Source: an uncultured Gammaproteobacteria bacterium
GTDB lineage: Bacteria > Patescibacteriota > Patescibacteriia > Magasanikbacterales > UBA922
Assembly: GCA_964447765.1 (NCBI GenBank)
Contig: CAYUTO010000003.1
Coordinates: 72,919 to 136,918 of the forward strand
DNA: 64,000 bases
Direction of reading: 5' to 3'
Positions 6,614-62,041 of this stretch are shown here, in pieces; positions within the stretch are counted from its first letter, which is position 1; each line of letters begins with the position of its first letter. A program made the position numbers and the translations under genes. The notes beneath the pieces were generated by a model that saw nothing but the letters and a program-made list of their open reading frames with translations, made no database searches and was not told the origin of the DNA.

Positions 6614-7579
6614 ATGTCTCAAAAAAATGACCTCCTCGACCTCGTGATTATCGGAGCTGCTGCTGCAGGGTGTGCTGCTGCCGTATACGCCGCACGAAGA
6701 AATTTGAAGTTCGCTGTGGTTACCAAAGATATTGGTGGAGAAGTTGCTCTTTCAGGAGAAGTAGAAAACTGGCCAGGTATCATACACACCACTGGTTTTG
6801 AATTGGCACAACAGTTCTACAAACATATGGAATCATATGGTATCAAAGCAGATGTAGGCTATTCGGTAACTTCGATTGAAAAGGAAGGAAAATATTTCAT
6901 TGTAAAAACTGAAGATTACTCAAAAAAAGAAAAGCTCTTCTATACAAAAACCGTAATTATCGGAAGTGGTATCCACCCTCGAGAGCTTGGGATTCCAGGA
7001 GAAAAAGAGTTGCGCGGCAAGGGAGTCACCTACTGTACCGTATGTGACGGACCGCTTTATCGCAATAAAATAACCACCACAATCGGAGCCGGAAATGCAG
7101 CACTCGAGTCGGCTCTCATGATGGCTGAGCTTGCAACCAAAGTGTATTGCATTACCAAATTCCCTAATACCAAAGAAACCAATGGTGGATTTCCCAAAGG
7201 TGAAAATATTTTGATTGATAAATTAAAAAAAGCTCCTAATGTGGAGATTATCTACGGCGCTATCACTACTGAAATACTGGGCACCGAAAATGTAACCGGC
7301 GTTTCTTATACCGACAACACCGGATCAAAACAAACTATCGAAACGAACGGTGTCATGGTACATATTGGAAATATTCCTAATTCCACTTTTGCGCCAATTG
7401 TCGACCGAACCCCCTTGGGCGAAATTATCGTGGATCTTACTTGCGCCACCTCAATCCCGGGAATTTTCGCAGCAGGAGATGTAACCACGGTTCCCTACAA
7501 ACAAATTGTCATTGCCGCAGGCCAGGGAGTCACAGCAGCACTCTCTGCTATCGCATATATCAATAAATGGGAAGAGTAA
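6614..7579 (+). CDS. trxB: Thioredoxin reductase (FAD/NAD(P)-binding, CxxC)
   Basis: DLVIIGAAAAGCAAAVYAAR FAD site, redox-active CTVCDG, second Rossmann motif TTIGAGNAALE, and FAAGDV. Confidence 0.85.
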   Translation: MSQKNDLLDLVIIGAAAAGCAAAVYAARRNLKFAVVTKDIGGEVALSGEVENWPGIIHTTGFELAQQFYKHMESYGIKADVGYSVTSIEKEGKYFIVKTEDYSKKEKLFYTKTVIIGSGIHPRELGIPGEKELRGKGVTYCTVCDGPLYRNKITTTIGAGNAALESALMMAELATKVYCITKFPNTKETNGGFPKGENILIDKLKKAPNVEIIYGAITTEILGTENVTGVSYTDNTGSKQTIETNGVMVHIGNIPNSTFAPIVDRTPLGEIIVDLTCATSIPGIFAAGDVTTVPYKQIVIAAGQGVTAALSAIAYINKWEE

Positions 7580-7661
7580 AAAAAATGTTTCTTATTTACT
7601 TCCATTTTGCTATACTTACATTCGTATTATAGCTTTGAGTTTTTACCTTTGAGCTTTAAGT

Positions 7662-7979
7662 TTGAAATCTATGTTCCTCGAATCAGTATTTCCTGTACTC
7701 CCATCATCAATTACCGAGATACTCGTCTACGTCTCAGCTTTCTTGGGTATTTTGTTGCTTTCATACGGAGTATTTCTCGAAGCAGAGAGTCGACAGGATT
7801 TAGTATTTTTTCTTGGAGCTTGCTTTCTTCTGGTCTATGCAATCTACATCGCAAATCTCGTCTTTGTTCTTGCAATGGGTGCATTCGCCTTGAACTCGAT
7901 GATTGAATTTATCGAAATACTCACTGGACTTCACAAACATAATCCCGAGCAACTCGAACGTGTTAAAAAATTACGCTAA
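7662..7979 (+). CDS. Small hydrophobic membrane protein (hypothetical)
   Basis: 105 aa with three predicted TM helices. It ends 4 nt before the kinase start. Confidence 0.35.
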   Translation: MKSMFLESVFPVLPSSITEILVYVSAFLGILLLSYGVFLEAESRQDLVFFLGACFLLVYAIYIANLVFVLAMGAFALNSMIEFIEILTGLHKHNPEQLERVKKLR

Positions 7980-39047: not shown

Positions 39048-40168
39048 AATACGCGTTTGAACTAGGACACCAGCCGCACGTATCTGTTGCTGAAATTATC
39101 TCTGTCTGCAAGCGGTTATCGATTTCTTACGAAGAAATCAAAACTGCTGACTCTTTTTTTATTATCGAAGTCGAAGAGACACTTGATGCACAAGCGCTCA
39201 TACATATTCTTGGTGGCACGATTCGAATCGCACATGCTTTGGAAAAAAAGACTGATGATGTGCACACGATTGCAGAACATCTGGAACAAGTAACTGATGG
39301 AAAAATTCAATTTTCTATTTCTGGAATAAACCAAAAATCATTAGCACTTGAAGTAAAAAAATATTTGAAAAGTATTGGGCGCTCGGTAAGGTATATCGAA
39401 TCAAAGAATGCTGCGACCGTGATCCACAATAATTTAATTGAAAAAAAGGGAGATATTATCAAAGTAGGTACCGAATGGTATGTGACTGATGCAATTCAAG
39501 ACATCGAATCTTTTACTCGCCGTGATTACGAGCGTCCACGCACCGACAGTAGAAGCGGTATGATTCCACCCAAGCTTGCACGCATGATGGTAAATCTTAC
39601 CGAAGCTCCACTCAATTCTCACATTCTCGACCCATTTTGCGGATCAGGTACCGTACTTATTGAAGCACTCTCACTTGGATATTCTCACGTATCTGGATCA
39701 GACAATTCAGAAAAAGCCGTTGAAGATTCTATTGAAAATACCCGATGGTTTTTGAAAGATCACACACAAAAAAAAGTCGAGACTGTGGTACACCTCATAC
39801 CTGCGGAAAAATTGGAAAAAGTATTTAAGAAAAGTAGCGTTGACGCAATCGTGTCCGAACCATATATGGGAAAACCCTTGCACGGACATGAAAGCAAATT
39901 TGCACTTGAAACTCAGGCAGTGGAGTTGAAAATGTTATACCTCAGTAGTTTTGAATCTTTTAAACAAATCCTTTCACCTGACGGTGTTATTATCTTTATC
40001 ATTCCAGTATTCAAATCAGGTAAAGAGTGGGTGAAAACTAATACCCATATTGAAATAGAAAAACTTGGATTCAAAGTTGTTCCTTTTTCGGAAAAAAATA
40101 CTTCTCTCCTCTATTCTCGGGACAACCAATTTGTTGGTCGCGAAATTTGGAAATTCAAAAAAACTTGA
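39044..40168 (+). CDS. THUMP-domain RNA (guanine-N2)-methyltransferase-like SAM-dependent methyltransferase
   Basis: SAM-binding motif LDPFCGSGTVLIEA and NPPY-like SEPYMGK downstream; N-terminal THUMP-like region. Confidence 0.65.
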   Translation: MKYAFELGHQPHVSVAEIISVCKRLSISYEEIKTADSFFIIEVEETLDAQALIHILGGTIRIAHALEKKTDDVHTIAEHLEQVTDGKIQFSISGINQKSLALEVKKYLKSIGRSVRYIESKNAATVIHNNLIEKKGDIIKVGTEWYVTDAIQDIESFTRRDYERPRTDSRSGMIPPKLARMMVNLTEAPLNSHILDPFCGSGTVLIEALSLGYSHVSGSDNSEKAVEDSIENTRWFLKDHTQKKVETVVHLIPAEKLEKVFKKSSVDAIVSEPYMGKPLHGHESKFALETQAVELKMLYLSSFESFKQILSPDGVIIFIIPVFKSGKEWVKTNTHIEIEKLGFKVVPFSEKNTSLLYSRDNQFVGREIWKFKKT

Positions 40169-40233
40169 CAGTAGGTGCTGTTTTTGAGAATACTAGATAC
40201 CAGTGTTCGCTCTTTTGACAACGGAGAATTGCG

Positions 40234-40578
40234 ATGGCAGAAAAATCCAAGATAAAACGGCTTCGCATCGAAGCACTCATATGGGCACTGACGATCACAT
40301 TCGTGGTCGGCGGACTCATCATGATCACTGGCCACGAGAGAAATGCGATAGCACACGAACTCGGTAGACGGCCTGCAATCGGATATCCCGTTTATCGGGG
40401 TGAATACACCATCATGATCATGAACATGCACCTCGGCGAGGTCTATTGGTTCACCGACTGCCCTCGACTGAAGGATTTTACTCGGTATGAGGAAGTTGCG
40501 ATCTACGGCGATCACCGGAATCGCTGCCACGACTGGCGCACTCTCACCCCCTCGGAATATGACATCTCCAAGAAGTAA
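40234..40578 (+). CDS. Hypothetical membrane protein in GC-rich islet 1
   Basis: 114 aa with one TM. GC-rich codons. TTGACA-N17 promoter upstream at ~40172. Confidence 0.45.
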   Translation: MAEKSKIKRLRIEALIWALTITFVVGGLIMITGHERNAIAHELGRRPAIGYPVYRGEYTIMIMNMHLGEVYWFTDCPRLKDFTRYEEVAIYGDHRNRCHDWRTLTPSEYDISKK

Positions 40579-40797
40579 CTCTTATTCCCTTGGCATGTCG
40601 CGGTCGACTACACCAACCCACAAGTGAACACTACCATTCACCGCCTCATGCCTTTATTGGTCCGAAAAACTTCGGGACAGTAAAGGAGATCGAGGCGGTG
40701 TTTTGTTTTCCCACAAAATTATTGACAACCTCACCAAAACCTTTATACTATGCACTTGTCGAGCTACGTGCCGACCGTCACCAGGAGAAACATACAC

Positions 40798-41106
40798 ATG
40801 TCGAATCCGGCAGAACAAGAAGAAGAGATCAAGCTCGCCCCTCCAATCGAGTACACCGGCCACACAGTCCACCTCCATCGCAAACCCAGCAAGAAGGGTC
40901 CGAAGGTGTACACTGGCAAGATTCGCATCGCTGAGTTCCCTCAGACGATCGTCCTCTACTACGATGGACGCTCGAGCTGCTTTGAATCAGACAAGTGGCA
41001 GAAGATTCTCAAGGACAACCAACTCACGCTCGAGGCGACCGTGGAGCAGCCGCTCCACAGACCCGTCCGAGTGGACTTCTTCATCAACGACGCCAACGCG
41101 TCGTAG
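40798..41106 (+). CDS. Hypothetical protein in GC-rich islet 1
   Basis: Start at MSNPAEQEEE with a GGAGA RBS 8 nt upstream. Followed by the hairpin gctcgcaccc...gggtgcgagc. Confidence 0.45.
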   Translation: MSNPAEQEEEIKLAPPIEYTGHTVHLHRKPSKKGPKVYTGKIRIAEFPQTIVLYYDGRSSCFESDKWQKILKDNQLTLEATVEQPLHRPVRVDFFINDANAS

Positions 41107-41176
41107 CTTGCGCGCTCGCACCCCTGGACTTCGGTCGACGGGTGCGAGCATATCAATTCCCTATCAAGGAATTTTT

Positions 41177-41398
41177 TTATTTACTAATTTCTACGATTTT
41201 CTTCTTTCCGGTTTTACCTTTAAGAATTACGATAGACGATTTTGCAATATCAAAATATTCACTTAAAATTTTAATTAGCTGTTCATTCGCTTCACCATCA
41301 ACTGGAGATGCAGTGAGACGAACTTGATATTCTGTTTCTGAAATTTTTTTTATACCAGTTTTTGATGAACGGGGTTTAACGGTAATAGTAAGACGCAT
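41177..41398 (-). CDS. DUF167 (YggU-like) small protein
   Basis: MRLTITVKPRSSKTGI...VRLTASPVDGEANEQLIKILSEYF matches the DUF167/YggU pattern. Confidence 0.7.
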   Translation of the reverse strand: MRLTITVKPRSSKTGIKKISETEYQVRLTASPVDGEANEQLIKILSEYFDIAKSSIVILKGKTGKKKIVEISK

Positions 41399-41522
41399 AT
41401 TGTATTTCCCCTCCTTTCGTAATAAGGTATATACTATATCACACCTCGAGACTTCGGCAGACCCTTCCCTATAGGAGAGGAAAATATAAAAAACAGACAG
41501 CTTTCGCCATCTGTTTTATGTA

Positions 41523-42827
41523 TTATTCGTGCTTATGTTCAGGTCTTCCGGTTAATATTTTCTCATGAAGAAAATTGATTACTTTTCGATTCACGAGATA
41601 TACCCGTACTGAATCTTGCACTTCTGCTTTGGTGAGATTTTCAAGGTATTCAGGGTGGTCTTTGTATTCTTTCTTCATTTTTTCAATTTCTACTTTGAGC
41701 TCCTGATCATCTACGGTAAGATTCTCATCCTTGGCAATCTGGCGAGAAACGAGTGCAGCTTTTGCACGCTTCGTAGCTTGCTCAGTAAAATCTTTTTGAA
41801 TATCCTCTTCGCTTTTCTTCAAGTCTGCCAAATATTGATCAATCGTGATTCCATTTTTTTCAAGATCACGTTTCAATTCATAAAACATTTTCTTTCGCTC
41901 AGCCTCTATCAATACTTCAGGAATTTCTTCGAACTTTGATTTGTCGATAAGTGCATCAAACATTTCGATCTCAGCTACTTCATCAGCTTTATGCAGTGCT
42001 TCATGCTCCATGTTGCTCTGCAATAATTCACGAAGTTTGATGACACTTTCTTGTCCTACTTTTTTTGCAAATTCATCATTCACTTCGGGGAAGACTCGAG
42101 TATACACTTCTTTTACTTTTGTTTTGAAATGCCCCGTGTTTCCTGCAAGCATTTTGTTGTAATAGTCTTTTGGAAATGGAACATCAAATTCTTTTTCCTC
42201 ACCCTTGGTAACTCCGAGAAGCGCATCATTGAATCCAGGAATGTGCTGCTTTTCTGATAAATACACCTGGTAATCTTTTGCCTGCCCACCTTCGATAGGT
42301 ACTCCATCGAGAAGGAGATCCATATCGATTACCACTTTGTCTTCTATGGTTGCAGGACCTTCTTTTACTACTTCTACAGCCTGCATTTTGGTGAGGTTTT
42401 CAATCACTGCATCAATATCAGTTTCAGTTACAGGCTTTGCTTTGTGTTCTACTTTTATTTTGTCGAGTTTTGGAAGAGTCACTACAGGAAGAAGTGCCAC
42501 TACTGCTTTGTATACAAAATCATTGCCTGGAGCGATTTTTTCAATATTAATTTTTGGCATTCCGATGGTATCAAGTTTTGCCTCCATGACCGCATTATAG
42601 AATGTTTCCTGGAGAATACTCTCGAGAGCTTCATTCATCACGTGCATTTCACCAATTTCACGTTTTACCATATCAAAAGGAGCATGTCCTTTGCGGAAGC
42701 CTTTGATCGTAGTTCTATTTGAGATTCGCTCAGCTGCTTTTCGCAAGTGTTTTTCGTATTCAGCCGGGGTTACCGTAATCGTCATCTCGATTTCTGAGTT
42801 TTTGAGTTTTTTATGAGTGTGTTCCAT
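41523..42827 (-). CDS. tig: Trigger factor
   Basis: 434 aa. N-terminal ribosome-binding domain with the GFRKGHAPFDMV motif, a central FKBP-like region and a C-terminal helical arm. Confidence 0.9.
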   Translation of the reverse strand: MEHTHKKLKNSEIEMTITVTPAEYEKHLRKAAERISNRTTIKGFRKGHAPFDMVKREIGEMHVMNEALESILQETFYNAVMEAKLDTIGMPKINIEKIAPGNDFVYKAVVALLPVVTLPKLDKIKVEHKAKPVTETDIDAVIENLTKMQAVEVVKEGPATIEDKVVIDMDLLLDGVPIEGGQAKDYQVYLSEKQHIPGFNDALLGVTKGEEKEFDVPFPKDYYNKMLAGNTGHFKTKVKEVYTRVFPEVNDEFAKKVGQESVIKLRELLQSNMEHEALHKADEVAEIEMFDALIDKSKFEEIPEVLIEAERKKMFYELKRDLEKNGITIDQYLADLKKSEEDIQKDFTEQATKRAKAALVSRQIAKDENLTVDDQELKVEIEKMKKEYKDHPEYLENLTKAEVQDSVRVYLVNRKVINFLHEKILTGRPEHKHE

Positions 42828-42855: not shown

Positions 42856-42884
42856 GATTATAGCGAAAAGGACGGTAATTGTCA
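42856..42884 (-). promoter_or_regulatory. Sigma70-type promoter of tig (TTGACA-N17-TATAAT)
   Basis: Minus strand reads ccTTTGACAattaccgtccttttcgcTATAATc. Confidence 0.55.
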
Positions 42885-43073
42885 AAGGTAAACAAAAAAC
42901 CACCTGTCGGTGGATCTTACATCATCTTTTTACTACTCAATACTTATTAAGTGGTTAAAAGATGTGGCGAGAAGAGGTGTAAAACTCAGCTCGCCGGGTT
43001 TGCCCTTGCCGGGACCAGCATTTTCCAATGATTCAAGCGTTACATTGGATCGCTTTTATTTTAAAATGAACAG

Positions 43074-43304
43074 TTACCAGTGAGCGCCGAGTCTTTTCCT
43101 CAGCTCTCTGGTCTTTATCAGGTCGAGAGCTCCGACCCCTCCCCAAAAGGTGAGGAAGCACGAGACCTTCACGCCCGTAGTGAGGAATACCACGCCCCAC
43201 CCGTTCAGTTGAATCTCCTCTCCAACCGCCAAGATTGCAGAGGAGAACGACGCGAGTACGATCAAGGCTCTGGCCAAGAATGTCATCCACTGACGAAAAT
43301 CCAC
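43074..43304 (-). CDS. Small membrane protein in GC-rich islet 2
   Basis: 76 aa with two hydrophobic segments; overlapping alternative frames exist. Confidence 0.3.
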   Translation of the reverse strand: MDFRQWMTFLARALIVLASFSSAILAVGEEIQLNGWGVVFLTTGVKVSCFLTFWGGVGALDLIKTRELRKRLGAHW

Positions 43305-43358
43305 TCTACCTCCGTTGGACTTGCCTGAACCGAAGTTCAGGACTTTTTTCTGACCTTC

Positions 43359-43670
43359 TTATCCCAGAAGCCCTCTTTTCCGTAAATCAGACACCACCGG
43401 GGCCATCAGAGAGAGCAGCTCTGGGTCTTTCAAGACCTTGGTGGCGCAGTCTCCTGAACTCATCTCACCCGCATCCATTGCTTCGAAAAGCTTCATCAGC
43501 CTGGTGAGCTTCATCATCAATGCTGCAAGTTCAGGGTCATCCTGAAAAGCAACTTCGATTTCCTCCTTAGTCAAGGTCCCTTTCTTGGCTTTTACAAACC
43601 AGGAATGGAGCTTCGCCAGGTGAGGATCACTCTGCCTTTTATATATAAACCGTCGACGCGGCGTACCCAT
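43359..43670 (-). CDS. Hypothetical protein in GC-rich islet 2
   Basis: Start at MGTPRRR. Driven by the repeat-borne promoter at 43821-43849. Confidence 0.45.
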   Translation of the reverse strand: MGTPRRRFIYKRQSDPHLAKLHSWFVKAKKGTLTKEEIEVAFQDDPELAALMMKLTRLMKLFEAMDAGEMSSGDCATKVLKDPELLSLMAPVVSDLRKRGLLG

Positions 43671-43800
43671 GTGCCTTCCTTTTCTACCAAGCCGAAGCTT
43701 GTTGGTTTTAGTAGGGTGAGAAATTCTCAACCCTCATTTCTAATTATTTAGCTAAAATAAGCAAAAATGAGGACTAAGTAGGTATAATCGCGATATGTAA

Positions 43801-43887
43801 ACGACGATCTGGAACAATAGACTATACCATAATTTAGCAATTTTGTCAAGCCTTTTGGGGTATATTTTGGCTCAATGTAGCAAAATT
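43801..43887 (-). repeat. ~87-bp direct repeat copy A carrying a consensus promoter (TTGACA-N17-TATAGT)
   Basis: Near-identical to 44628-44711. Minus strand reads cTTGACAaaattgctaaattatggTATAGTctattgttccagatcgtc. Confidence 0.75.
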
Positions 43888-43999
43888 TGTACGTTCTTTT
43901 GCACTATAAAAATGAAAGACCCGCATCGTGTGATGCGGGGTTGCTCGGAAATCGAGCGAAGGATCAAGGGAACTTCCCAAGATCCCGAGAATTCAAGTG

Positions 44000-44461
44000 C
44001 TACTTGCGGCGGAGCATCCGGCTTCGGACGCTCCGTTGGGGCACGAGCCACTCCCAGTCCTGCACCCACCGGTCGCCGTTCCAGACGACATAGGCGACAC
44101 GGCCTTGATCGTCAGGATGACGCCAGTCAGTGAAGACGAAGTTGACCTTGCCACGGAGAACAGCAGGGATGTCATCCTGATACTTCAGGATATGCTCACC
44201 ATCCTCCTGTCCGAGATGAGCCGAGAGGTTCTTCGCCTGATCGACCATCGTCGACTTCTGTCTTCCCCTGCGGAAGCCGAGGATGTCGTAGGTGCGAGCA
44301 CCCACAGTCATCGTGGTCGGGATGACCCTATCCTTGATGAGATTCTCCTCGAAGAACTTGTTGGGGTTCTCGAGGAAGCTCTGGAAGTTCTCAGCCGTGA
44401 TCTTCCCCTCGCCAACGAGGACGAAGAAGTGCTGCATCTGCGGGAACGTCGGGTTGCTCAT
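44000..44461 (-). CDS. Hypothetical protein in GC-rich islet 2
   Basis: 153 aa, W-rich C-terminal region (VVWNGDRWVQDWEWL). Hairpin terminator downstream (gacccgcatcgtgtgatgcggg). Confidence 0.5.
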   Translation of the reverse strand: MSNPTFPQMQHFFVLVGEGKITAENFQSFLENPNKFFEENLIKDRVIPTTMTVGARTYDILGFRRGRQKSTMVDQAKNLSAHLGQEDGEHILKYQDDIPAVLRGKVNFVFTDWRHPDDQGRVAYVVWNGDRWVQDWEWLVPQRSVRSRMLRRK

Positions 44462-44627
44462 GCATTATCTCCTATGGCCCACTGGCAGTCAGTAAACGTC
44501 TCGGCACCGTGCCTACTGCGCTTCTGATACACCGTTGTGGGTCTATGAAGGAAGGGGAATTCCCAGCCTTCGTTTCTGGTTATTTGGCTTAAATAAACAA
44601 AAATGAAGGCTGGAATGTTATATAAAG

Positions 44628-44711
44628 GACGATCTGGAACAATAGACTATACCATAATTTAGCAATTTTGTCAAGCCTTTTGGGGTATATTTTGGCTCAA
44701 TGTAGCAAAAT
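44628..44711 (-). repeat. ~87-bp direct repeat copy B carrying the same consensus promoter
   Basis: ggacgatctggaacaatagactataccataatttagcaattttgtcaagccttttggggtatattttggctcaatgtagcaaaat. Confidence 0.75.
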
Positions 44712-44813
44712 ACCTATAAAAATGAAAAGCCCCGCATGTATAGCGGGGTGACCAATTTTGCGCTGACGACATGTCGAGCGCTCAGGGATCGTGAATCGAC
44801 CAAGGGAACACCC

Positions 44814-45362
44814 CTAGATCTTAAGTTCCAGCGTGACTTGGGCAGTTACGCTTACGCAACCCGCCTCATTTCTAGTCTGCACAGTACACGTCAGATTAGG
44901 AGCAACCGCAGGTGGCTCCTTCTCTTTTACCTCAGTAGCCGGGACCGAGACGAGCCTGTGTGCCTCTTCCAGCGAAGTTGCTGCCTGTTTCATGTAGGCG
45001 AACCGGGTCTTTACCGGCCCGACAATCTTATGCACATGATTCGCCGTATCGAGCAAAATGAGACACCACATTTTATCGATACCACGACTCTCATGCACTA
45101 TATTAGGATCGTCTCTGGTGACGGAGGCAGTGTACCAACGAATACCACCCGAGTCGTCGTATCTAATTCCGACGACTCGAAAGGCCCCCGGTATACGCTC
45201 ATGCTTTTCTCTACGAATCTCATATGAAACTTCCCCGATCATACCAGGGAAGTCTTTCTTCAACTTCGCCTCGAGTTCTTTAAGCCTCATCCTCATTTCT
45301 TCTTGTGTGGGTATTTTTTCTTCCACTTTGTCTTTTTTTGGTACTGATTTCGGGGATTTCAT
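44814..45362 (-). CDS. Hypothetical protein in GC-rich islet 2
   Basis: Start at MKSPKSV. Promoter-like ggTTGACAaattataataaatttgtTAGATT upstream at ~45400-45440. Confidence 0.45.
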   Translation of the reverse strand: MKSPKSVPKKDKVEEKIPTQEEMRMRLKELEAKLKKDFPGMIGEVSYEIRREKHERIPGAFRVVGIRYDDSGGIRWYTASVTRDDPNIVHESRGIDKMWCLILLDTANHVHKIVGPVKTRFAYMKQAATSLEEAHRLVSVPATEVKEKEPPAVAPNLTCTVQTRNEAGCVSVTAQVTLELKI

Positions 45363-45528: not shown

Positions 45529-48213
45529 ATGCCTACCAAAAACAAAACAGTCGTTATAATTGATGGAAACGCTATAATCCATCGCGCTTACCACGCTCTT
45601 CCTCCACTCACTGCTCCAGATGGAACGCTCGTAAATGCGGTGTATGGATTTGCGTCTATGCTCCTCAAAGTGATGGCAGATCTCAAGCCTGACTACCTCG
45701 TCACCACCTTTGATGTGGCCGGCGGTACTTTTCGCGATGAAATCTATACTGAATACAAAGCCACTCGGGTAAAAACTGACCAGGCACTCTATGACCAGAT
45801 TCCACTGGTTCACGAACTCGTCAAAGGTTTTAATGTACCGATTTATACCAAAACTGGATTTGAGGCAGATGACCTGATCGGAACGCTTGCAAAAAAGATT
45901 ACTGAAAAACATTCTGATATTACCTGTATTATCGTGACTGGTGACAAAGATTTGCTCCAGCTCGTAGACAATAATAAAATCGAGGTGTACCTCCTCCGAA
46001 AAGGAATGTCAGATTTTGAATTATTCAACGAAGCTCATGTGCAGGAAAAATTTGGATTCTCGCCGATACAGATGATTGATTACAAATCTCTTCGTGGTGA
46101 CACCTCTGATAATATTCCTGGGGTCAAAGGCATTGGAGAAAAAACTGCCACCGAATTGCTTACCAATTTTGGAACACTCGAAAAAATTTACGATGCTCTG
46201 AAAAATGAAGACAAAAAAATATCTGCAAGTGTGCAAAAAAAATTAACCGAAGGATATGAGTCAGCATTGATGAGCAAAAAACTTGCGACGATTGATACCG
46301 ATGTACCTGATATCGATTACTCGCTTCCCGAAATGCAAACAACTTCATACAAAAGAGAAGAGGTAATTGAATTATTCAAAAAATTTGGTTTTTACTCGCT
46401 CGTAAAACGTGTGTCTGGCGGTGCCGATGCTGTCGAGGAAAAAACTACGAATCCCAAAAAGAAAGAAAAGAAAATGAAAGTTGGCGAAGTAATTATTGTT
46501 GATACCAAAAACATTTCAGAGCTTAGTACACTTATACAAAAATACAAAGTCTGCGCATGTCGACCTTGTTTCCAGAATGAAAATGGAAATATCATCACCT
46601 CAACATGCACTGGAATTGTATGCGTTATTGCCGACACATCATGGATGATTCCGCTTTCAATGCTTGAAAAACTTCCCTTTAATTCAAAAGACATTACCAT
46701 TGTCGGGCATGATGTAAAACAATTTGTAAAACTGTACACGCATGTAGGAGTCGAATTTAAAGCGCGGTTATTTGATGTCATGATTGCATCGTATTTACTG
46801 AATTCGAGCACTCGTGCACACGACATGGAGTCAATCGCGATTCGAGAATTAGGAATTGAATTACCAAATACTGATCAATCATCGCTATTCGGCATTGACC
46901 CAAAAATTATTGCAACAGAGCTTGCAGCCACGCTCAAAGTATCAGAGAAATACGAAAAACAATTAGTGAGTGAATCAGAGAAGGGATTATTTGAAGACAT
47001 TGAAATGGCTTTGATCCCTGTGCTTGCACACATGGAGCTCGCGGGAGTTGCAATTGATATCCCACTCTTGGGACACCTATCAGTAAAAATCGCTAAGACT
47101 ATTAAGGAACTAGAAAAAAATATCTGGAAAGAAGCAGGGAAAGAATTCAATGTCTCGTCTTCCACCCAACTTCGGGATATTTTATTTGTTGATTTAGGTC
47201 TTCCGACTGACATGATCAAAAAAGGCAAAACGGGTTACTCGACTGCAGCAAGCGAGCTTGAAAAACTGAGAGAACTACATTCTATTATTCCTTTTATCGA
47301 AGAATACCGTGAAGTTGAAAAGCTCAGAAATACCTATATTGATGTATTACCGACTTTGATTAATCAGAAAACTGGTCGAATTCACACAACATTTAATCAG
47401 GCAATTGCAGCTACAGGACGACTCTCAAGTATTGACCCGAATTTGCAAAATATTCCAATTAGAACTGAATTAGGGAAAGACGTACGCAAAGCATTTATTG
47501 CGGACAAAGGAAATAAACTGATTTCAGCTGATTACTCACAAATTGAATTGCGTATTGTTGCCTCACTTGCGAATGATCTAAAAATGATTGAGATATTTAA
47601 AAAAGGTGAAGATATTCATACCGCGACCGCAGCTGCAATTCACAATATTCCACTTGATAAAGTTACCAAGGATATTCGACGATCTGCAAAAGAAGTTAAC
47701 TTTGGAGTTCTCTATGGCATGGGATCATTTGGTCTTTCGTCTCGCACAGGAATTTCTCACGCAGAAGCAAAAGAATTTATCCAAAAATATTTTGATACGT
47801 TTGCAGGGGTAAAGAAATATATGGATGACACACTGGAACGTGCAAAAGAAACCGGATATGTAGAAACACTATTTGGTCGCAAACGTTATGTACCAGAATT
47901 ACAATCACCTAATAGACAAATCCAGGCAGCAGGTGAACGCATGGCAATCAACATGCCGATCCAAGGAACCGCAGCTGATATTATGAAGATGGCGATGATT
48001 GCAGTGTACCACGCACTTAAAAAAGAAAAGTTACTTGATTCACACGCTCGAATGACTCTACAGATACACGATGAATTGGTTCTTGAGGTTGAAGAAAAAT
48101 ATGCCGAAGCGGTTGCTCTGATAGTAAAAACGGAAATGCAAAATGTTGCGAAACTCAAAGTACCGATTGATGTAGGAGTAGAGATTGGCGATCGGTGGGG
48201 GGAGATGAAGTAG
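45529..48213 (+). CDS. polA: DNA polymerase I
   Basis: N-terminal 5'-3' exonuclease (VIIDGNAIIHRAYHA). Central exonuclease-like domain. C-terminal family-A polymerase motifs (DYSQIELR, RRSAKEVNFGVLYGMG, QIHDELV). Confidence 0.9.
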   Translation: MPTKNKTVVIIDGNAIIHRAYHALPPLTAPDGTLVNAVYGFASMLLKVMADLKPDYLVTTFDVAGGTFRDEIYTEYKATRVKTDQALYDQIPLVHELVKGFNVPIYTKTGFEADDLIGTLAKKITEKHSDITCIIVTGDKDLLQLVDNNKIEVYLLRKGMSDFELFNEAHVQEKFGFSPIQMIDYKSLRGDTSDNIPGVKGIGEKTATELLTNFGTLEKIYDALKNEDKKISASVQKKLTEGYESALMSKKLATIDTDVPDIDYSLPEMQTTSYKREEVIELFKKFGFYSLVKRVSGGADAVEEKTTNPKKKEKKMKVGEVIIVDTKNISELSTLIQKYKVCACRPCFQNENGNIITSTCTGIVCVIADTSWMIPLSMLEKLPFNSKDITIVGHDVKQFVKLYTHVGVEFKARLFDVMIASYLLNSSTRAHDMESIAIRELGIELPNTDQSSLFGIDPKIIATELAATLKVSEKYEKQLVSESEKGLFEDIEMALIPVLAHMELAGVAIDIPLLGHLSVKIAKTIKELEKNIWKEAGKEFNVSSSTQLRDILFVDLGLPTDMIKKGKTGYSTAASELEKLRELHSIIPFIEEYREVEKLRNTYIDVLPTLINQKTGRIHTTFNQAIAATGRLSSIDPNLQNIPIRTELGKDVRKAFIADKGNKLISADYSQIELRIVASLANDLKMIEIFKKGEDIHTATAAAIHNIPLDKVTKDIRRSAKEVNFGVLYGMGSFGLSSRTGISHAEAKEFIQKYFDTFAGVKKYMDDTLERAKETGYVETLFGRKRYVPELQSPNRQIQAAGERMAINMPIQGTAADIMKMAMIAVYHALKKEKLLDSHARMTLQIHDELVLEVEEKYAEAVALIVKTEMQNVAKLKVPIDVGVEIGDRWGEMK

Positions 48214-48294: not shown

Positions 48295-48358
48295 AAAAAG
48301 AATAGCCAGGGTACATGAAAGCGCGAATGCGCCGTCAGTGTCCCTGGCGATGATAGGC

Positions 48359-48793
48359 TCAGATTGTCGGTCGATACTTCCGGAAAATATCGGCAAAGAA
48401 CTTCTCCGCCGACACCCCTTTCAGTTCGACCATCCGAACCCCGAGTACCTCGGCTTCGTGCCTCTCCTTTTCCCGCCTTTCGGGATTGAGTTCTTCGAAG
48501 CTGGTTACCACCACAACCTCTTTCTTGTGACCATTGAGGTCTTTGAGGATCCGGCGGACCAGAAGCCATGACTGCTCTCGTGTTGCGCATGCCTGCTCGA
48601 CGTCTCCGACGTAGACGTACAGCGCATCAGCCCGGATGAGTTCGTGACGATTGAAATTCCTGTAGATGAGCTCAGGAGCATCCCATTCACCAGGTTTTCT
48701 TTCGTACGAATGCACCACAAGCGTGTCGTTGTGCCGTTTGTACTGTTTATGCCCTGCCGGTACTTCCGGTACAGTCCCGAATGTCACTATCAT
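48359..48793 (-). CDS. Hypothetical protein in GC-rich islet 3
   Basis: ~145 aa (MIVTFGTVPEVPAG ... VVVVTSFEELNPERRE), alpha/beta-like. GC-rich codons. No motif recognised. Confidence 0.45.
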   Translation of the reverse strand: MIVTFGTVPEVPAGHKQYKRHNDTLVVHSYERKPGEWDAPELIYRNFNRHELIRADALYVYVGDVEQACATREQSWLLVRRILKDLNGHKKEVVVVTSFEELNPERREKERHEAEVLGVRMVELKGVSAEKFFADIFRKYRPTI

Positions 48794-49042
48794 CTCGAAC
48801 ACTTATGCCCTCGTTTCTCATGCCTGCGCCAGGAAAGCACCTGCTCGTTGGAACAATAGTCCACCGAACCTTTGTTCCTTATCCTGTGACACACATGAGT
48901 CTACGCCCACTCCTCCTTATGCCAGTAGGCTGTAATTTGACTATAACACATGTAAGATTAAAAGTTAAAAGTAAAAAGATAGTGCAAATACAAAAAAATA
49001 CACGAAATTTTTCTCTCGTGTATTTTTTTGCCTTTTGCGCTT

Positions 49043-54626: not shown

Positions 54627-54867
54627 ATATAAAGTATTTTAATCTTCTAATCTTCAATCTTTATTCTTCAGTTATTTCTTCCCTATTTTCCCAAAGAAAA
54701 ACGCGATCAGTGTCGCAGCAATTGATCCGAGGATTAGTATGAGAATTGATAAGAATCCATCCATAGTATTATCCATAATAACACAAACTTTTCTCTCTGT
54801 CATTGTGTCATTCCGAGCGAGTGCACTCGAGTCGAGGAATCCCTTGTTTTGCAATAATATACGGTAA

Positions 54868-54958
54868 AACAAAAAGACACCACAGGTGTGATGTGCTTTT
54901 GGTTTGGGCGGAACTGACAGACACAGTTCCGCAGGGTTGTCCTAAGTTTTACTTCCAC
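54868..54958. repeat. ~90-bp direct repeat copy 1 (hairpin gcggaactg...cagttccgc)
   Basis: aacaaaaagacaccacaggtgtgatgtgcttttggtttgggcggaactgacagacacagttccgcagggttgtcctaagttttacttccacc. Confidence 0.75.
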
Positions 54959-55007
54959 CATGTCTGAGGCAGAAGGAGTATAACCTACTCAAGTATGTGA
55001 AAATGCT

Positions 55008-55886
55008 CTATTTGACTACAGGACCCACTTCTTTGATAAAATCTGGTCCGACGTTACCTTCTATCCCCGCTTTCATTGTGCGCCGGTACCACTCTCTAAA
55101 GTTATTTCGGTAAATTGCGCCCCAGACTTCTATTGTCTGTTGCATCACTCCCGAATCATTCATCCCCGTTTCAGCACTCACCTGTTTTGGGAGTCTTCCT
55201 CTCTTGTATAACACAGCATACAATCTCGCTTGCGCAGCGTAGGCTGTTTCTTCGAATCCTTCTAGGTCTGAGTTGTAGAAGCCCTTCATCTGAGTGCGAT
55301 CTTGTATATTGTTCTTCTGGATGTACTTCAGACAGTCAGAAGCATGCTTCATCTCGTGATAGAAGCCGAGCGCCACGAACTCCGTACTCCCCTGAGAAGG
55401 AGCGGCGACTGCGTACCTATCATTAACGCAGTCATATGCCATTCGCCCAGTCCCACCTATTGGTTCCGAGTAGAATACCCATTGAATCCGACGCGTGCCC
55501 TGCACGTACTCTTTGAGGAGGGCGAAGATCTCTTTGTCATCTTGTGTAGACAAGAATGGATCACCTTCAAACTCGAGAATGACGTCTGCTGAAGCACGCA
55601 GTTGCTGTGGACTTACTGCTGGCAGGTTTTTTACGCTCACGAACTCGTGATCGAGGTCCACGAGTTCAGGAACTTGAGCCCGAACTGCGGTATTGACAGT
55701 CTGGTGTGCCGCCGCCGGTCTGTTCACGACTGATCTCGTATTCCTCTCTTTTGCGAGGAAGAAGATAGCGATACCCCCGAGCACCAGGGCCGAGATTGCC
55801 AGTAGCATACCCGACCAGTTTTTATTCACTGGTTTCTCAGCCATTTTAACTGCTGAGCGAACTTGGTGCTTAGTTTTTTTCGACAT
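55008..55886 (-). CDS. Membrane-anchored putative zinc metallopeptidase (HEMKH motif) in GC-rich islet 4
   Basis: Start at MSKKTKH (GTGAGGT RBS upstream). One TM, then an extracytoplasmic domain with FYHEMKHASD (HExxH). Confidence 0.5.
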   Translation of the reverse strand: MSKKTKHQVRSAVKMAEKPVNKNWSGMLLAISALVLGGIAIFFLAKERNTRSVVNRPAAAHQTVNTAVRAQVPELVDLDHEFVSVKNLPAVSPQQLRASADVILEFEGDPFLSTQDDKEIFALLKEYVQGTRRIQWVFYSEPIGGTGRMAYDCVNDRYAVAAPSQGSTEFVALGFYHEMKHASDCLKYIQKNNIQDRTQMKGFYNSDLEGFEETAYAAQARLYAVLYKRGRLPKQVSAETGMNDSGVMQQTIEVWGAIYRNNFREWYRRTMKAGIEGNVGPDFIKEVGPVVK

Positions 55887-55926
55887 GATTACCTCACTGT
55901 TGCTGGTCCTATAATTAGGACTAAGC

Positions 55927-55955
55927 AAAATACTACAATTTATACGTTTTGTCAA
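55927..55955 (-). promoter_or_regulatory. Promoter (TTGACA-N17-TATTTT) of the metallopeptidase-like gene
   Basis: Minus strand reads caTTGACAaaacgtataaattgtagTATTTTgc. Confidence 0.45.
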
Positions 55956-55971
55956 TGCTACAGGGTATATA

Positions 55972-56059
55972 AAACAAAAAGACACCACGGATGTGATGTG
56001 CTTTTGGTTTGGGCGGAGCTCTCAGGTAGAGCTCCGCAGTTGATGTGAGTTTTACTTCC
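55972..56059. repeat. ~90-bp direct repeat copy 2 (hairpin gcggagctc...gagctccgc, compensatory changes relative to copy 1)
   Basis: aacaaaaagacaccacggatgtgatgtgcttttggtttgggcggagctctcaggtagagctccgcagttgatgtgagttttacttccac. Confidence 0.75.
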
Positions 56060-56376
56060 ACAACCTGAACATAGAAGGGGTCTCAGTAGACCTAGCGCGC
56101 ATATTATTGCGCTTCCAGACCACTACCCTAGGAGTGAGCTTATCACATTCCCTGTACCCACCTAAGGAACAGATACATATGCACCGGGTTGGAAATAGTG
56201 CAGTCCTCACTCTCTTGCATCTTCTGCTGCCCAGGTGCACTGCTCTGCGAAGCACTAATTTGCTCATGGCTCGTAGCCAGTATACCTGCAATGAGCAGAG
56301 GCAGAATAAATATGGACGCTATTATCGCAATGAATTTTTTATCCATTTCCATAGCACCTCAGGTCGGTGGTAAGCT

Positions 56377-56838
56377 TTACCCCCAGAAGCCGAGTCGTTG
56401 CCACCAGTGGGGTGGATACGTCTGGGTCGGTTTGTGTTCACCCGTAAGATCGATCGAGTTCTTAACCTCTACAGCATTCACCCCGTTAATGAGGAAGATG
56501 AAGTTGCACTCTCCCTTACCGAGGTAAGTGGAAAAGGCGATAACTCCACCTTTACTGTATAAATACCCGAACTGATCGACCCCTTTGTTTCCGAATGGTA
56601 ATTCGAGCTCAAATGCGATCAGAGCACTGAACTTCTTTCCACCAGGAACAGAGAGTACGATCGTCTGCATCCCTGGCACCAACTCTTCAGTAGCACTTCC
56701 TAAATAGTGCCACTGGATCTTATTTTTATTGTCGTCAGTGTAGTTCTTCAGAAACTTGAACTTCTTCACGAGTTCCTTCGCGAGGAACACAGTCGTCACG
56801 AGGGCGATGAGAAGGAACAATAGAATGATTGTAAACAT
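56377..56838 (-). CDS. N-terminally anchored hypothetical protein in GC-rich islet 4
   Basis: 153 aa with one TM (IILLFLLIALVTTVFL). Confidence 0.45.
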   Translation of the reverse strand: MFTIILLFLLIALVTTVFLAKELVKKFKFLKNYTDDNKNKIQWHYLGSATEELVPGMQTIVLSVPGGKKFSALIAFELELPFGNKGVDQFGYLYSKGGVIAFSTYLGKGECNFIFLINGVNAVEVKNSIDLTGEHKPTQTYPPHWWQRLGFWG

Positions 56839-59971: not shown

Positions 59972-60002
59972 AAAAATCCGCCGTATGGCGGGTTTTGTTT
60001 TT
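59972..60002 (+). terminator. Rho-independent terminator after ychF
   Basis: aaaaatccgccgtatggcgggttttgttttt. Confidence 0.7.
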
Positions 60003-60127
60003 ACCTTTCGTCCTTATCTTCAGGACTCATCAGTTCATGTTTCACATGAAGAGGTCGGCCGTTTTTTTGAGGTACGGCGTAACCTCTCTCCGTTTTACGA
60101 AATGGAGATAAAACTTATACGTAAGGA

Positions 60128-60460
60128 TCAATCAGACTTCTGGTTCATCGCCTCCCACGTCTCTTCGAGAGACTTGCGCACTGCCTCTTGCTCGTGGAAT
60201 TCTCTGTTCACCTTCAGGACAAGGTCCTTCAGATTCAGGAGTATGAAGTAAAGCACGATATCATCTTCTTCGGACAACCCCTTGTCCGAATAGTAGATCC
60301 CTCGAGCTTCGGAGTATTTAACACTCCCTTTCTCCTTTTCTCCGGTCACCTGGACTTCCACTTCCACCACCCATGCGAGACCAGTGATACGGTCTCTGAT
60401 GGCGTCGGAGATCGCGGTAATCTGAAGTACCCACTGCTCTCGCTTGATTTTACTGTTCAT
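60128..60460 (-). CDS. Hypothetical protein in GC-rich islet 6
   Basis: 110 aa. Promoter-like gcCTTGACAacaagcgcttattttggTTAACT on the minus strand upstream (~60565-60595). Confidence 0.4.
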   Translation of the reverse strand: MNSKIKREQWVLQITAISDAIRDRITGLAWVVEVEVQVTGEKEKGSVKYSEARGIYYSDKGLSEEDDIVLYFILLNLKDLVLKVNREFHEQEAVRKSLEETWEAMNQKSD

Positions 60461-60592
60461 TCAGTTCCCCTTGGTGGCCATTACAGACCGATTGAAATGC
60501 ACACAAACCTAGAAACCAACTTTGATTTCCACCATTGTGCGCACTTATACTTAAAGGAGAATGATTTAGTTAACCAAAATAAGCGCTTGTTG

Positions 60593-61387: not shown

Positions 61388-61564
61388 TTATCTGGTCTTT
61401 TGAGTGCGTTTTCCTTTGCGTTCGCTACTCACCGTGAGTTTTTTTCGACCCTTAGCGCGTCGGCGCTTGAGTATATCACGACCATCTTTTGTCCTCATTT
61501 TTTTCAAAAAACCATGGGTTTTTGCTCGTTTTCGTTTTTTTGGTTGATACTTTCGCTTTGGCAT
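61388..61564 (-). CDS. rpmH: 50S ribosomal protein L34 (with C-terminal basic extension)
   Basis: [45 protein letters not shown]. Confidence 0.85.
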
Positions 61565-61759
61565 ACAAATGCTCCTTAAGTAATTACTAATAAATACACT
61601 ATACACTATTTTACCTGTTTTGTCAAGAAAAATTCCGTAATTTTAGAGAATTTGGAAGCCTCGCACCAGAACTCTATGTCCGAAATGGACATTTAGAGAC
61701 TGGTGCGAGACCAACGACTTGCCCGTCTTTCGAATACGGCTTTTAAGTCCGAGCGATGC

Positions 61760-62041
61760 TCAGACCTTTGGCCGTCCGAAAAAGACTCTCCCAACACTTT
61801 GCCCGTCCGGCAAGGGGACCTCGTAGGTCTCCCTGGGTCCGACCACGTACTGACTGCTCATGTTCGGACCATTCAGCTTGAAGGCCAGATGGTTGTCCTC
61901 GTAGTTCGTCATCTCGACGATGTTGAGGCTTTTCCGACCACGCTCTCGCTTTCGCTTGATTTTGACCTCTGCCACTCCCTTGCGGCGCACTCGACTATCA
62001 GTCGAGAGATTGCCATTCAGCTGTCTCCAGTCAATGTCCAT
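61760..62041 (-). CDS. Hypothetical protein in GC-rich islet 7 (between rpmH and dnaA)
   Basis: 93 aa. GAGGAG RBS 8 nt upstream. TTGACA-N17-TTTACT promoter-like on the minus strand at ~62063-62091. Confidence 0.35.
   Translation of the reverse strand: MDIDWRQLNGNLSTDSRVRRKGVAEVKIKRKRERGRKSLNIVEMTNYEDNHLAFKLNGPNMSSQYVVGPRETYEVPLPDGQSVGRVFFGRPKV

Follow-up and report, generated by a model that had tools for sequence, protein, structure and literature searches.

The window analysed here is a stretch of 64,000 nucleotides from a Magasanikbacteria-like genome of the candidate phyla radiation (CPR) (contig CAYUTO010000003.1, positions 72,919 to 136,918 of the forward strand). Between its polA and tig genes, with a DUF167 gene also among the flanks, lies an array of four small minus-strand open reading frames (ORFs), C, B, A and D, and two of these, B and A, are headed by near-identical copies of a promoter-leader module that is the subject of this report. 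We find that this module is the leader of a gene family encoding variable proteins of diversity-generating retroelements (DGRs), to which gene B belongs, and that gene A, an ORF without homologues (ORFan), has acquired it. The array forms a GC island, with 50-60% GC against ~39% across the window, and the GC content at third codon positions (GC3) is 0.79 in gene B and 0.51 in gene C against a host value of 0.34 in tig and polA. The genes are as follows.

45529-48213, plus strand: polA
44814-45362, minus strand: gene C, 182 aa, an ORFan and the first cassette of the array
44000-44461, minus strand: gene B, 153 aa, a member of a CPR family of DGR variable proteins
43359-43670, minus strand: gene A, a 103-aa ORFan, predicted to be all-helical, under module copy 1
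43074-43304, minus strand: gene D, 76 aa, with a GTG start after GGAGG
41523-42827, minus strand: tig, trigger factor

An earlier note on this sequence had described two near-identical copies (43801-43887 and 44628-44711), each carrying a TTGACA-N17-TATAGT promoter on the minus strand; both are present as described, and they form part of a longer repeat. On the minus strand, the 93 nt at 43794-43886 and those at 44619-44711 share 98% identity. The 29-nt promoter string TTGACAAAATTGCTAAATTATGGTATAGT, TTGACA-N17-TATAGT, occurs exactly twice in the window, both times on the minus strand, where none is expected from 100 shuffles; both sites score 11/12 in a consensus scan and have a TG ahead of the -10, making it an extended -10. 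Wider homology, at ~50-74% identity outside this core, defines 286-nt units at 43699-43984 and 44535-44820, in each of which a post-stop element, the terminator of the upstream gene, the promoter and a leader hairpin follow one another in that order. The post-stop element GATCTWGGGRWGTTCCCTTGRTC has only two copies in the window (43962-43984 and 44798-44820), and the stop codon of gene C falls within this repeated element. No further copies of the module were found in the 64-kb window by string, motif or covariance model (CM) search. The parts of the repeat, and the promoter of gene C, are these.

44535-44820, minus strand: repeat unit R2, with post-stop element, gene C terminator, promoter and leader through hairpin P1, upstream of B
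44619-44711, minus strand: 93-nt core, copy 2, with the -35 at 44669-44674, the extended -10 at 44646-44651 and the predicted first part of the transcript
44730-44748, minus strand: intrinsic terminator of gene C, CCCCGC-loop-GCGGGG and then a T-run
43699-43984, minus strand: repeat unit R1, with post-stop element, gene B terminator, promoter and leader through P1, upstream of A
43794-43886, minus strand: 93-nt core, copy 1, with the -35 at 43844-43849 and the extended -10 at 43821-43826
43920-43939, minus strand: intrinsic terminator of gene B, with an orthologous terminator in the relative L001
45410-45438, minus strand: promoter of gene C, TTGACA-N17-TAGATT

A third, more diverged promoter of the same type had been noted before gene C. 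The promoter exists, but the region upstream of C has only 28 nt around the -35 in common with the module (z ~4).

Gene B has 15 close homologues at 40-92% identity, the nearest from a Candidatus Magasanikbacteria metagenome-assembled genome, and a profile of these homologues gathers 1013 cluster representatives at E ≤ 1e-3; gene B itself scores 216 bits against the hidden Markov model (HMM) of the family. In one retrieved locus, L007, 122 nt from the 3' end of the B homologue are repeated downstream of it, and bAvd and a reverse transcriptase (RT) come next, in that order. An RT and a repeat resembling a template repeat (TR) lie beside the homologue in five of the fetched loci (L007, L009, L016, L021 and L065), and in L006 and L038 an Avd gene and a TR-like repeat are present on contigs that end there. 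A variable repeat (VR) is demonstrable in the homologues of L006, L007, L009 and L021. In four checked VR/TR pairs, 16 of 17, 19 of 19, 15 of 16 and 20 of 21 mismatches fall at adenines of the TR, which is the downstream copy, and because the repeats differ almost only at adenines, the hallmark of DGRs, we identify the B family as a DGR variable-protein family: its members are the small, GC-rich variable (target) proteins of DGRs in CPR bacteria. The last ~130 nt of gene B (44000-44131) are equivalent to the VR in active homologues, and across the family the N-termini are variable and the VR domain is conserved. A cellular DGR clade restricted to Patescibacteria/CPR, with targets that have a conserved C-terminal VR domain, has been described by Roux et al. 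(2021; PMC8144416), and the B homologues resemble those targets in carrying a C-terminal VR of ~120 nt, a downstream TR that differs at adenines, and then bAvd and RT.

Several further features of the family were observed. Its coding sequences are GC-rich (GC3 0.6-0.93) within AT-rich CPR genomes, for example in L002, L006, L009, L021 and L097, and the promoters and hairpin P1 are AT-rich; a few members that lack an RT are themselves AT-rich (GC 0.38-0.39; L102 and L069/L105). At positions 1-5620 of L006, a 123-kb contig, the B-family gene, TR and Avd adjoin inovirus-like genes (Zot and a REP_ORF2-G2P replication protein). The protein P0015 joins the N-terminal ~40 residues of gene B (PTFPQMQHFF..ENPNKFFE) to an unrelated C-terminus, L048 from 4325 onward likewise has the family N-terminus with a different C-terminal part, and P0018, P0020 and P0022 contain three to four tandem copies of the VR domain.

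The regions upstream of family members, taken from genomes retrieved by protein similarity and from other contigs, contain leaders that share one architecture in at least 40 loci, and nearly all members of the family have it. A TTGACA-N17-(TG)nTATAAT promoter is followed by a pyrimidine-rich 5' segment, hairpin P1, a linker, hairpins P2 and P3, and the Shine-Dalgarno sequence. P1 is a long hairpin with the base GGCUUUCUUU / AAAGAAGGCC and an apex that can be as short as 5 nt or exceed 100 nt, and P2 consists of CCUCUUUGCC / GGCGAGGAG; RNAalifold, applied to natural full-length leaders, predicts P1, P2 and P3 independently. The earlier note had proposed that the 5' untranslated regions of the two window copies form stem-loops with arms that differ between copies and remain complementary. 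Folding supports this, the stems it quoted being the base of P1, and the covariation extends to further copies: among 28 distinct aligned sequences, both window copies included, 92.5% of cells in P1 are paired and 14 of its 20 pairs are changed on both sides. None of 500 shuffles reaches the observed value, a control that overstates significance, the aligned leaders being related by descent, and pairing falls to 42-55% in controls in which the partner is moved by one to three columns. G-U pairs are frequent on the sense strand of P1 and its CM scores are higher for sense than for antisense, so the structure resides in RNA rather than in DNA. The 5' arm of P1 recurs in the linker that follows, and this second version can take its place in pairing with the 3' arm, giving an alternative helix, P1', of 6.6 bp on average within a leader's own sequence versus 5.8 bp across leaders (0 of 2000 permutations reach the observed value). 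In six loci (L011, L020, L023, L036, L097 and L098) the P1 apex holds GC-rich palindromic insertions of 40-100 nt with the P1 base kept, and these insertions resemble small repeats of the REP or miniature inverted-repeat transposable element (MITE) kind.

The leader is closely tied to the family. A search for more copies, as the earlier note had suggested, recovered the same leader before other B-family genes: a metagenome scan with the P2 pattern returned 88 matches, 44 of which precede B-family genes, in a set where the invariance of P2 is partly forced by the search pattern itself. The remaining matches, which we take to be due to chance, have no family gene downstream and come from unrelated DNA that is mostly GC-rich. 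In 68 loci all CM matches, whose E-values are rough, fall at leader positions beside B-family genes, with the one exception of L077, discussed below. A search of the window against Rfam 15 gave no match at the gathering threshold or at E ≤ 10, and six canonical loci searched at permissive thresholds returned only generic (miRNA-like) hairpin noise at the leader. The suggestion of a cassette array built from a reused expression module is retained in part: the units between the core genes are autonomous, each with promoter, gene and terminator, but the module is the family-specific leader of DGR variable-protein genes and not a generic one.

Both hairpins of the window are in register with the family P1 in the 28-sequence alignment, and they are the sole CM matches in the window. 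With CM R1, copy 2 (44562-44614) scores 57 bits in sense and 49.5 in antisense, and copy 1 (43726-43778) 49 bits in sense and 26.4 in antisense. The hairpin of gene A carries a unique double change from U-A to C-G, and is paired at a position where that of gene B is mismatched. The leader elements are the following.

44562-44614, minus strand: leader hairpin P1, copy 2, ~22 bp by folding
44469-44553, minus strand: 3' part of the B leader, with UUCCU at 44549-44553 and the AGGAG Shine-Dalgarno at 44469-44473
43726-43778, minus strand: leader hairpin P1, copy 1, by folding
43671-43734, minus strand: 3' part of the A leader, with hairpins and the Shine-Dalgarno AGGAAGG at 43674-43680

In the predicted minimum free energy fold of the B leader, the AGGAG Shine-Dalgarno base-pairs with UUCCU, and the two enclose a GC-rich inserted domain; P1' overlaps this UUCCU, and the predicted pairing of the Shine-Dalgarno is 95%, with an unpaired probability of 0.05 versus 0.24 in shuffles. 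In the A leader a second hairpin (43713-43734) overlaps the 3' arm of P1, and a UUCG hairpin is present at 43689-43700. Downstream of P1 the subgroup formed by the window and L001 departs from the family consensus.

The history of the duplication is illuminated by L001, whose protein is 92% identical to that of gene B. In L001 only B lies between polA and tig, its leader and terminator are orthologous to those of the window, and its promoter differs from both window copies. Compared with its L001 orthologue, the B cassette of the window keeps 93-95% identity in the coding sequence and shows its lowest conservation in the promoter core (~79-84%, with 14 mismatches in ~90 nt). The comparison of the two window copies gives the opposite picture: here no segment is better conserved than the core (96 matches and 1 mismatch), and the flanks reach 50-68%. 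Because the same core is least conserved between orthologues and most conserved between the window copies, its near-identity reflects recent gene conversion or copying and not constraint.

The two modules had been said to drive two different ORFans. Genes A and B are indeed without detectable homology to each other, but only A is an ORFan, B having the homologues described above. Genes A and C have no relatives among 5.8 billion proteins, giving self-matches only, on one contig each, and neither has a match in phage genomes by tblastn. Pfam, PHROGs, PADLOC and NCBIfam searches with A, B, C, D and two other GC-rich ORFs returned nothing usable, a PDB sequence search gave no match, and neither did a fold search with the model of gene A. 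BLASTP yields a weak 34-residue N-terminal match between A and B, which is not upheld because hhalign of A against the B family gives a probability of 0.1. We conclude that gene A is a true ORFan that acquired the promoter-leader module. Decayed B paralogues were considered as the origin of A or C and rejected, as a six-frame HMM search finds no B-like trace.

Family cassettes in tandem also occur in L002-L005 and L074. A second P1-type module in L077 (2498-2544) heads a 125-aa non-family ORF (to 3060) that stands straight after a family cassette, and this is an independent parallel to gene A. The N-terminus of the L077 ORF resembles that of P0022, the multi-repeat family member.

We consider it probable that these observations are explained by a DGR-target family leader, tandem duplication of the B cassette, replacement of gene bodies and homogenisation of the promoter core. 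Each family member is an autonomous cassette that runs from a sigma-70 promoter of the extended -10 type, through a leader of ~140-200 nt and the gene, to a terminator; the base of P1 is conserved and its apex free, the linker can pair with the P1 3' arm instead to form P1', and P2 and P3 stand just before the Shine-Dalgarno. In the lineage of the window the B cassette would have been duplicated in tandem, generating junctions in which post-stop element, terminator, promoter and leader follow one another, after which unrelated ORFans would have taken the place of two gene bodies, C on the upstream side and A with D on the downstream side. The two modules that remained were recently homogenised over their 93-nt promoter core, by gene conversion or copying, and gene A therefore now uses the leader of a DGR target. 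As to function, the most likely role of the leader, judged from its predicted folds, is to act in cis on translation initiation and/or mRNA stability. More tentatively, and as something we regard as possible rather than probable, a dedicated CPR leader, absent from Rfam and made up of three hairpins and a covarying alternative helix, may gate the expression of DGR variable proteins as a portable cassette, with flanks that would allow amplification, conversion and gene-body replacement; if so, such portability would explain how orphan genes (A and the non-family ORF of L077) come to be under DGR-target control.

Several points, besides the common descent of the aligned leaders and the constraint that the P2 search pattern imposes, weigh against parts of this explanation. 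RT and Avd are absent from the 64-kb window by tblastn with those of L007 (best E 0.3-0.6), and blastn-short finds in the window no second copy of the 3' part of B that could serve as its TR. In this the window copy is unlike the CPR DGR targets of Roux et al. (PMC8144416), and its link to DGRs rests on homology because RT, Avd and TR are missing from the 64 kb. Divergence from L001 is no higher in the VR-equivalent of B than elsewhere in the gene, and in the AlphaFold2 model of gene B (pLDDT, the predicted local distance difference test, 84) the fold has weak matches that are C-type-lectin-like, so that a C-type lectin fold is only weakly indicated. The window leaders of A and B are without the canonical P2 and P3 sequences. 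Among the 28 leaders, burial of the Shine-Dalgarno is not significantly above that in shuffles (0.28 vs 0.35, p=0.11), and in-silico blocking of either P1 arm gives no consistent change in accessibility; since neither test has a clear effect, we offer a translational switch as a conjecture. Lastly, the sequence of duplication and replacement is a reconstruction, A and C being devoid of B-like sequence in the six-frame HMM search.

The lack of a DGR beside gene B has counterparts within the family. L001 is also without RT and Avd, an RT is present in 3 of the 9 members that have at least 2.5 kb of downstream sequence, and of the family members for which enough flanking sequence is available, about half have no adjacent DGR either. 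Because RT, Avd and TR are missing from the window and the VR-equivalent shows no additional divergence from L001, gene B appears to be an orphan target that is not currently diversified.

Among the alternatives, the one that survives best accepts the module as a DGR-target leader and holds that P1 is an element of double-stranded RNA processing or stability, such as a site for RNase III or a structure that protects the 5' end, and not part of a switch. This we judge less likely than not but a serious rival: the P1 stem is ~20-22 bp long with symmetric 1x1 loops, the lower stem is conserved below an apex in which insertions of 40-100 nt are tolerated, and the in-silico tests lend no clear support to a switch. 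Against it stand a linker that copies the 5' arm of P1 and covaries with the 3' arm, which points to alternative pairing, and the overlap in gene B between P1' and the UUCCU that pairs with the Shine-Dalgarno.

A leader of the DGR-target family that was duplicated locally, the explanation we prefer, can also be compared with an autonomous mobile promoter, a MITE-like element represented by the 93-nt core. Highly similar upstream regions before non-homologous genes have been documented by Nijveen, Matus-Garcia and van Passel (2012; PMC3575422), who defined 'putative mobile promoters' by at least 80% identity over 50 nt at -150 to -50. The present case is similar in that a highly similar upstream region precedes non-homologous genes in one genome (98% over 93 nt, where the measure of promoter reuse is at least 80% over at least 50 nt) and a structured RNA element is carried along. 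It differs in that the copies are adjacent in a tandem cassette array and not dispersed, that identity falls sharply outside the 93-nt tract, and that this tract, at ~-124 to -250 from the start codons of genes whose leaders are 150-180 nt long, lies mostly outside the -150 to -50 interval. A mobile element is improbable, as there are only two copies in 64 kb, the core edges have neither terminal inverted repeats nor target-site duplications, the lower-identity homology that runs on into terminator and leader indicates a conversion tract within an older paralogous unit, and elsewhere the promoter and leader remain attached to the B family. The duplication is an instance of promoter reuse that probably arose locally, by tandem duplication and conversion, and not through a mobile element.

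Strong purifying selection on a regulatory sequence, which might be invoked for a core holding a near-consensus promoter with an extended -10, is similarly improbable as the cause of its identity, given that against L001 this same core is the segment that has changed most while the coding sequence is still 93-95% identical.

That the hairpin acts as DNA, whether as a palindromic operator, a cruciform or an attC-like site, in an array generated by site-specific recombination, we regard as quite improbable. The hairpins are imperfect palindromes of conserved structure and variable sequence between small same-strand genes, and the units do resemble morons and integron cassettes in being small, independent, atypical in GC content and inserted between unrelated genes. 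The many G-U pairs of the sense strand are, however, A-C mismatches on the opposite strand, the sense strand consistently gives the better CM scores, and an operator would keep its sequence and not complementarity alone. The comparison of the earlier note with integron-like arrays fails on other grounds as well: there is no attC-type site, the R''/L''/L'/R' boxes, including R''/R' (RYYYAAC / GTTRRRY) at the stem ends, are lacking, the internal loops are symmetric, no integrase ORF is present in 41-48 kb, the only part of the window scanned for integrases, and each cassette has its own promoter and terminator in place of a common Pc promoter. The parallel with phage morons extends to the anatomy of an autonomous promoter-gene-terminator unit and not to a prophage context, since polA and tig form the flanks, PHROG searches gave no match, and neither relatives of the B family nor leader matches occur in IMG/VR.

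An assembly artefact, in which the shared 93-nt repeat would have served to link the A-D segment of this metagenome-assembled contig wrongly to the B cassette, is highly implausible even with proteins A and C each on a single contig, as it would require two chimeric joins around a short internal repeat that is flanked on both sides by diverged homologous sequence, with a B terminator orthologous to that of L001 leading directly into copy 1 and the sequence downstream of D continuing into the conserved tig promoter.

The known structured cis-regulatory leaders offer another comparison. Like them, the DGR-target leader is a covarying, multi-hairpin 5' untranslated region with mutually exclusive helices and pyrimidine-rich segments able to pair with the Shine-Dalgarno; unlike riboswitch-like leaders, it has no conserved unpaired ligand pocket that we could identify, the apex of P1 is freely variable, and no Rfam family matches it. 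A conserved promoter-leader is not mentioned in the titles and abstracts of the DGR papers found, and the RT-associated motifs of PMC5737381 are distinct from the P1-P2-P3 leader.

The remainder of the array and its surroundings deserve brief description. Related terminators had been reported after each of the module-driven genes, and they are found after C and B (44730-44748 and 43920-43939) but not after A, where the hairpin at 43324-43341 has no minus-strand T-run. This hairpin, CCTGAAC-TTCG-GTTCAGG, lies between A and D with a T-run on the plus strand only, and resembles a plus-strand terminator, though there is no plus-strand gene upstream of it. Since no minus-strand terminator separates A and D, gene D is probably co-transcribed with gene A. 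Two hydrophobic stretches of gene D are read as transmembrane helices, and its sole Pfam match is a weak, sub-threshold one to DUF4022. The unit ends as follows.

42900-42913, minus strand: terminator of the A-D unit, just upstream of the tig promoter
42857-42885: tig promoter

On the other side of tig, L001 (compared over 7271-7900) has a gene for a HAD-family hydrolase between tig and DUF167, where the window has only 125 nt (41398-41523), and beyond DUF167 the two neighbourhoods diverge further, with GC-rich ORFs on the window side. Other GC-rich islands of the window (40100-41150, 48350-48950, 60000-60500 and 61500-62000, at 0.47-0.59 GC versus a background of ~0.39) contain small ORFs with no domain matches, for example 40234-40578 (GC3 0.63) and 40750-41106 (GC3 0.77); neither B-like sequence nor the P1 hairpin was found in the other GC-rich islands of the window. 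A second duplicated intergenic module is present in yet another GC-rich island (55000-56500), where 54865-54934 and 55970-56039 are 87% identical over 70 nt, with similarity extending further. Read on the minus strand it contains two hairpins in which a stem covaries (GCGGAACTG / GCGGAGCTC), together with a T-run and a promoter with TTGACA, and terminator-promoter junctions have therefore been reused there too.

Finally, to our knowledge DGRs are the only system of targeted protein hypermutation in prokaryotes. They are especially common in CPR bacteria, for which we know of little work on how, when and why the variable proteins are made. The main gain is the identification of a structured leader that is widespread, has no match in Rfam and is tied to CPR DGR variable-protein genes. 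Its conservation across several CPR classes, together with its covariation and alternative helix, suggests that expression is regulated after transcription has been initiated, and it provides a concrete RNA for probing and mutation. The leader is also a cheap genomic marker, as the CM finds family members, orphan targets included, with no need of an RT. The window itself offers a dated example of the capture of a promoter and leader by an unrelated orphan gene, through what we infer to be tandem duplication and gene conversion, and this case bears on how new genes gain expression signals in reduced genomes.

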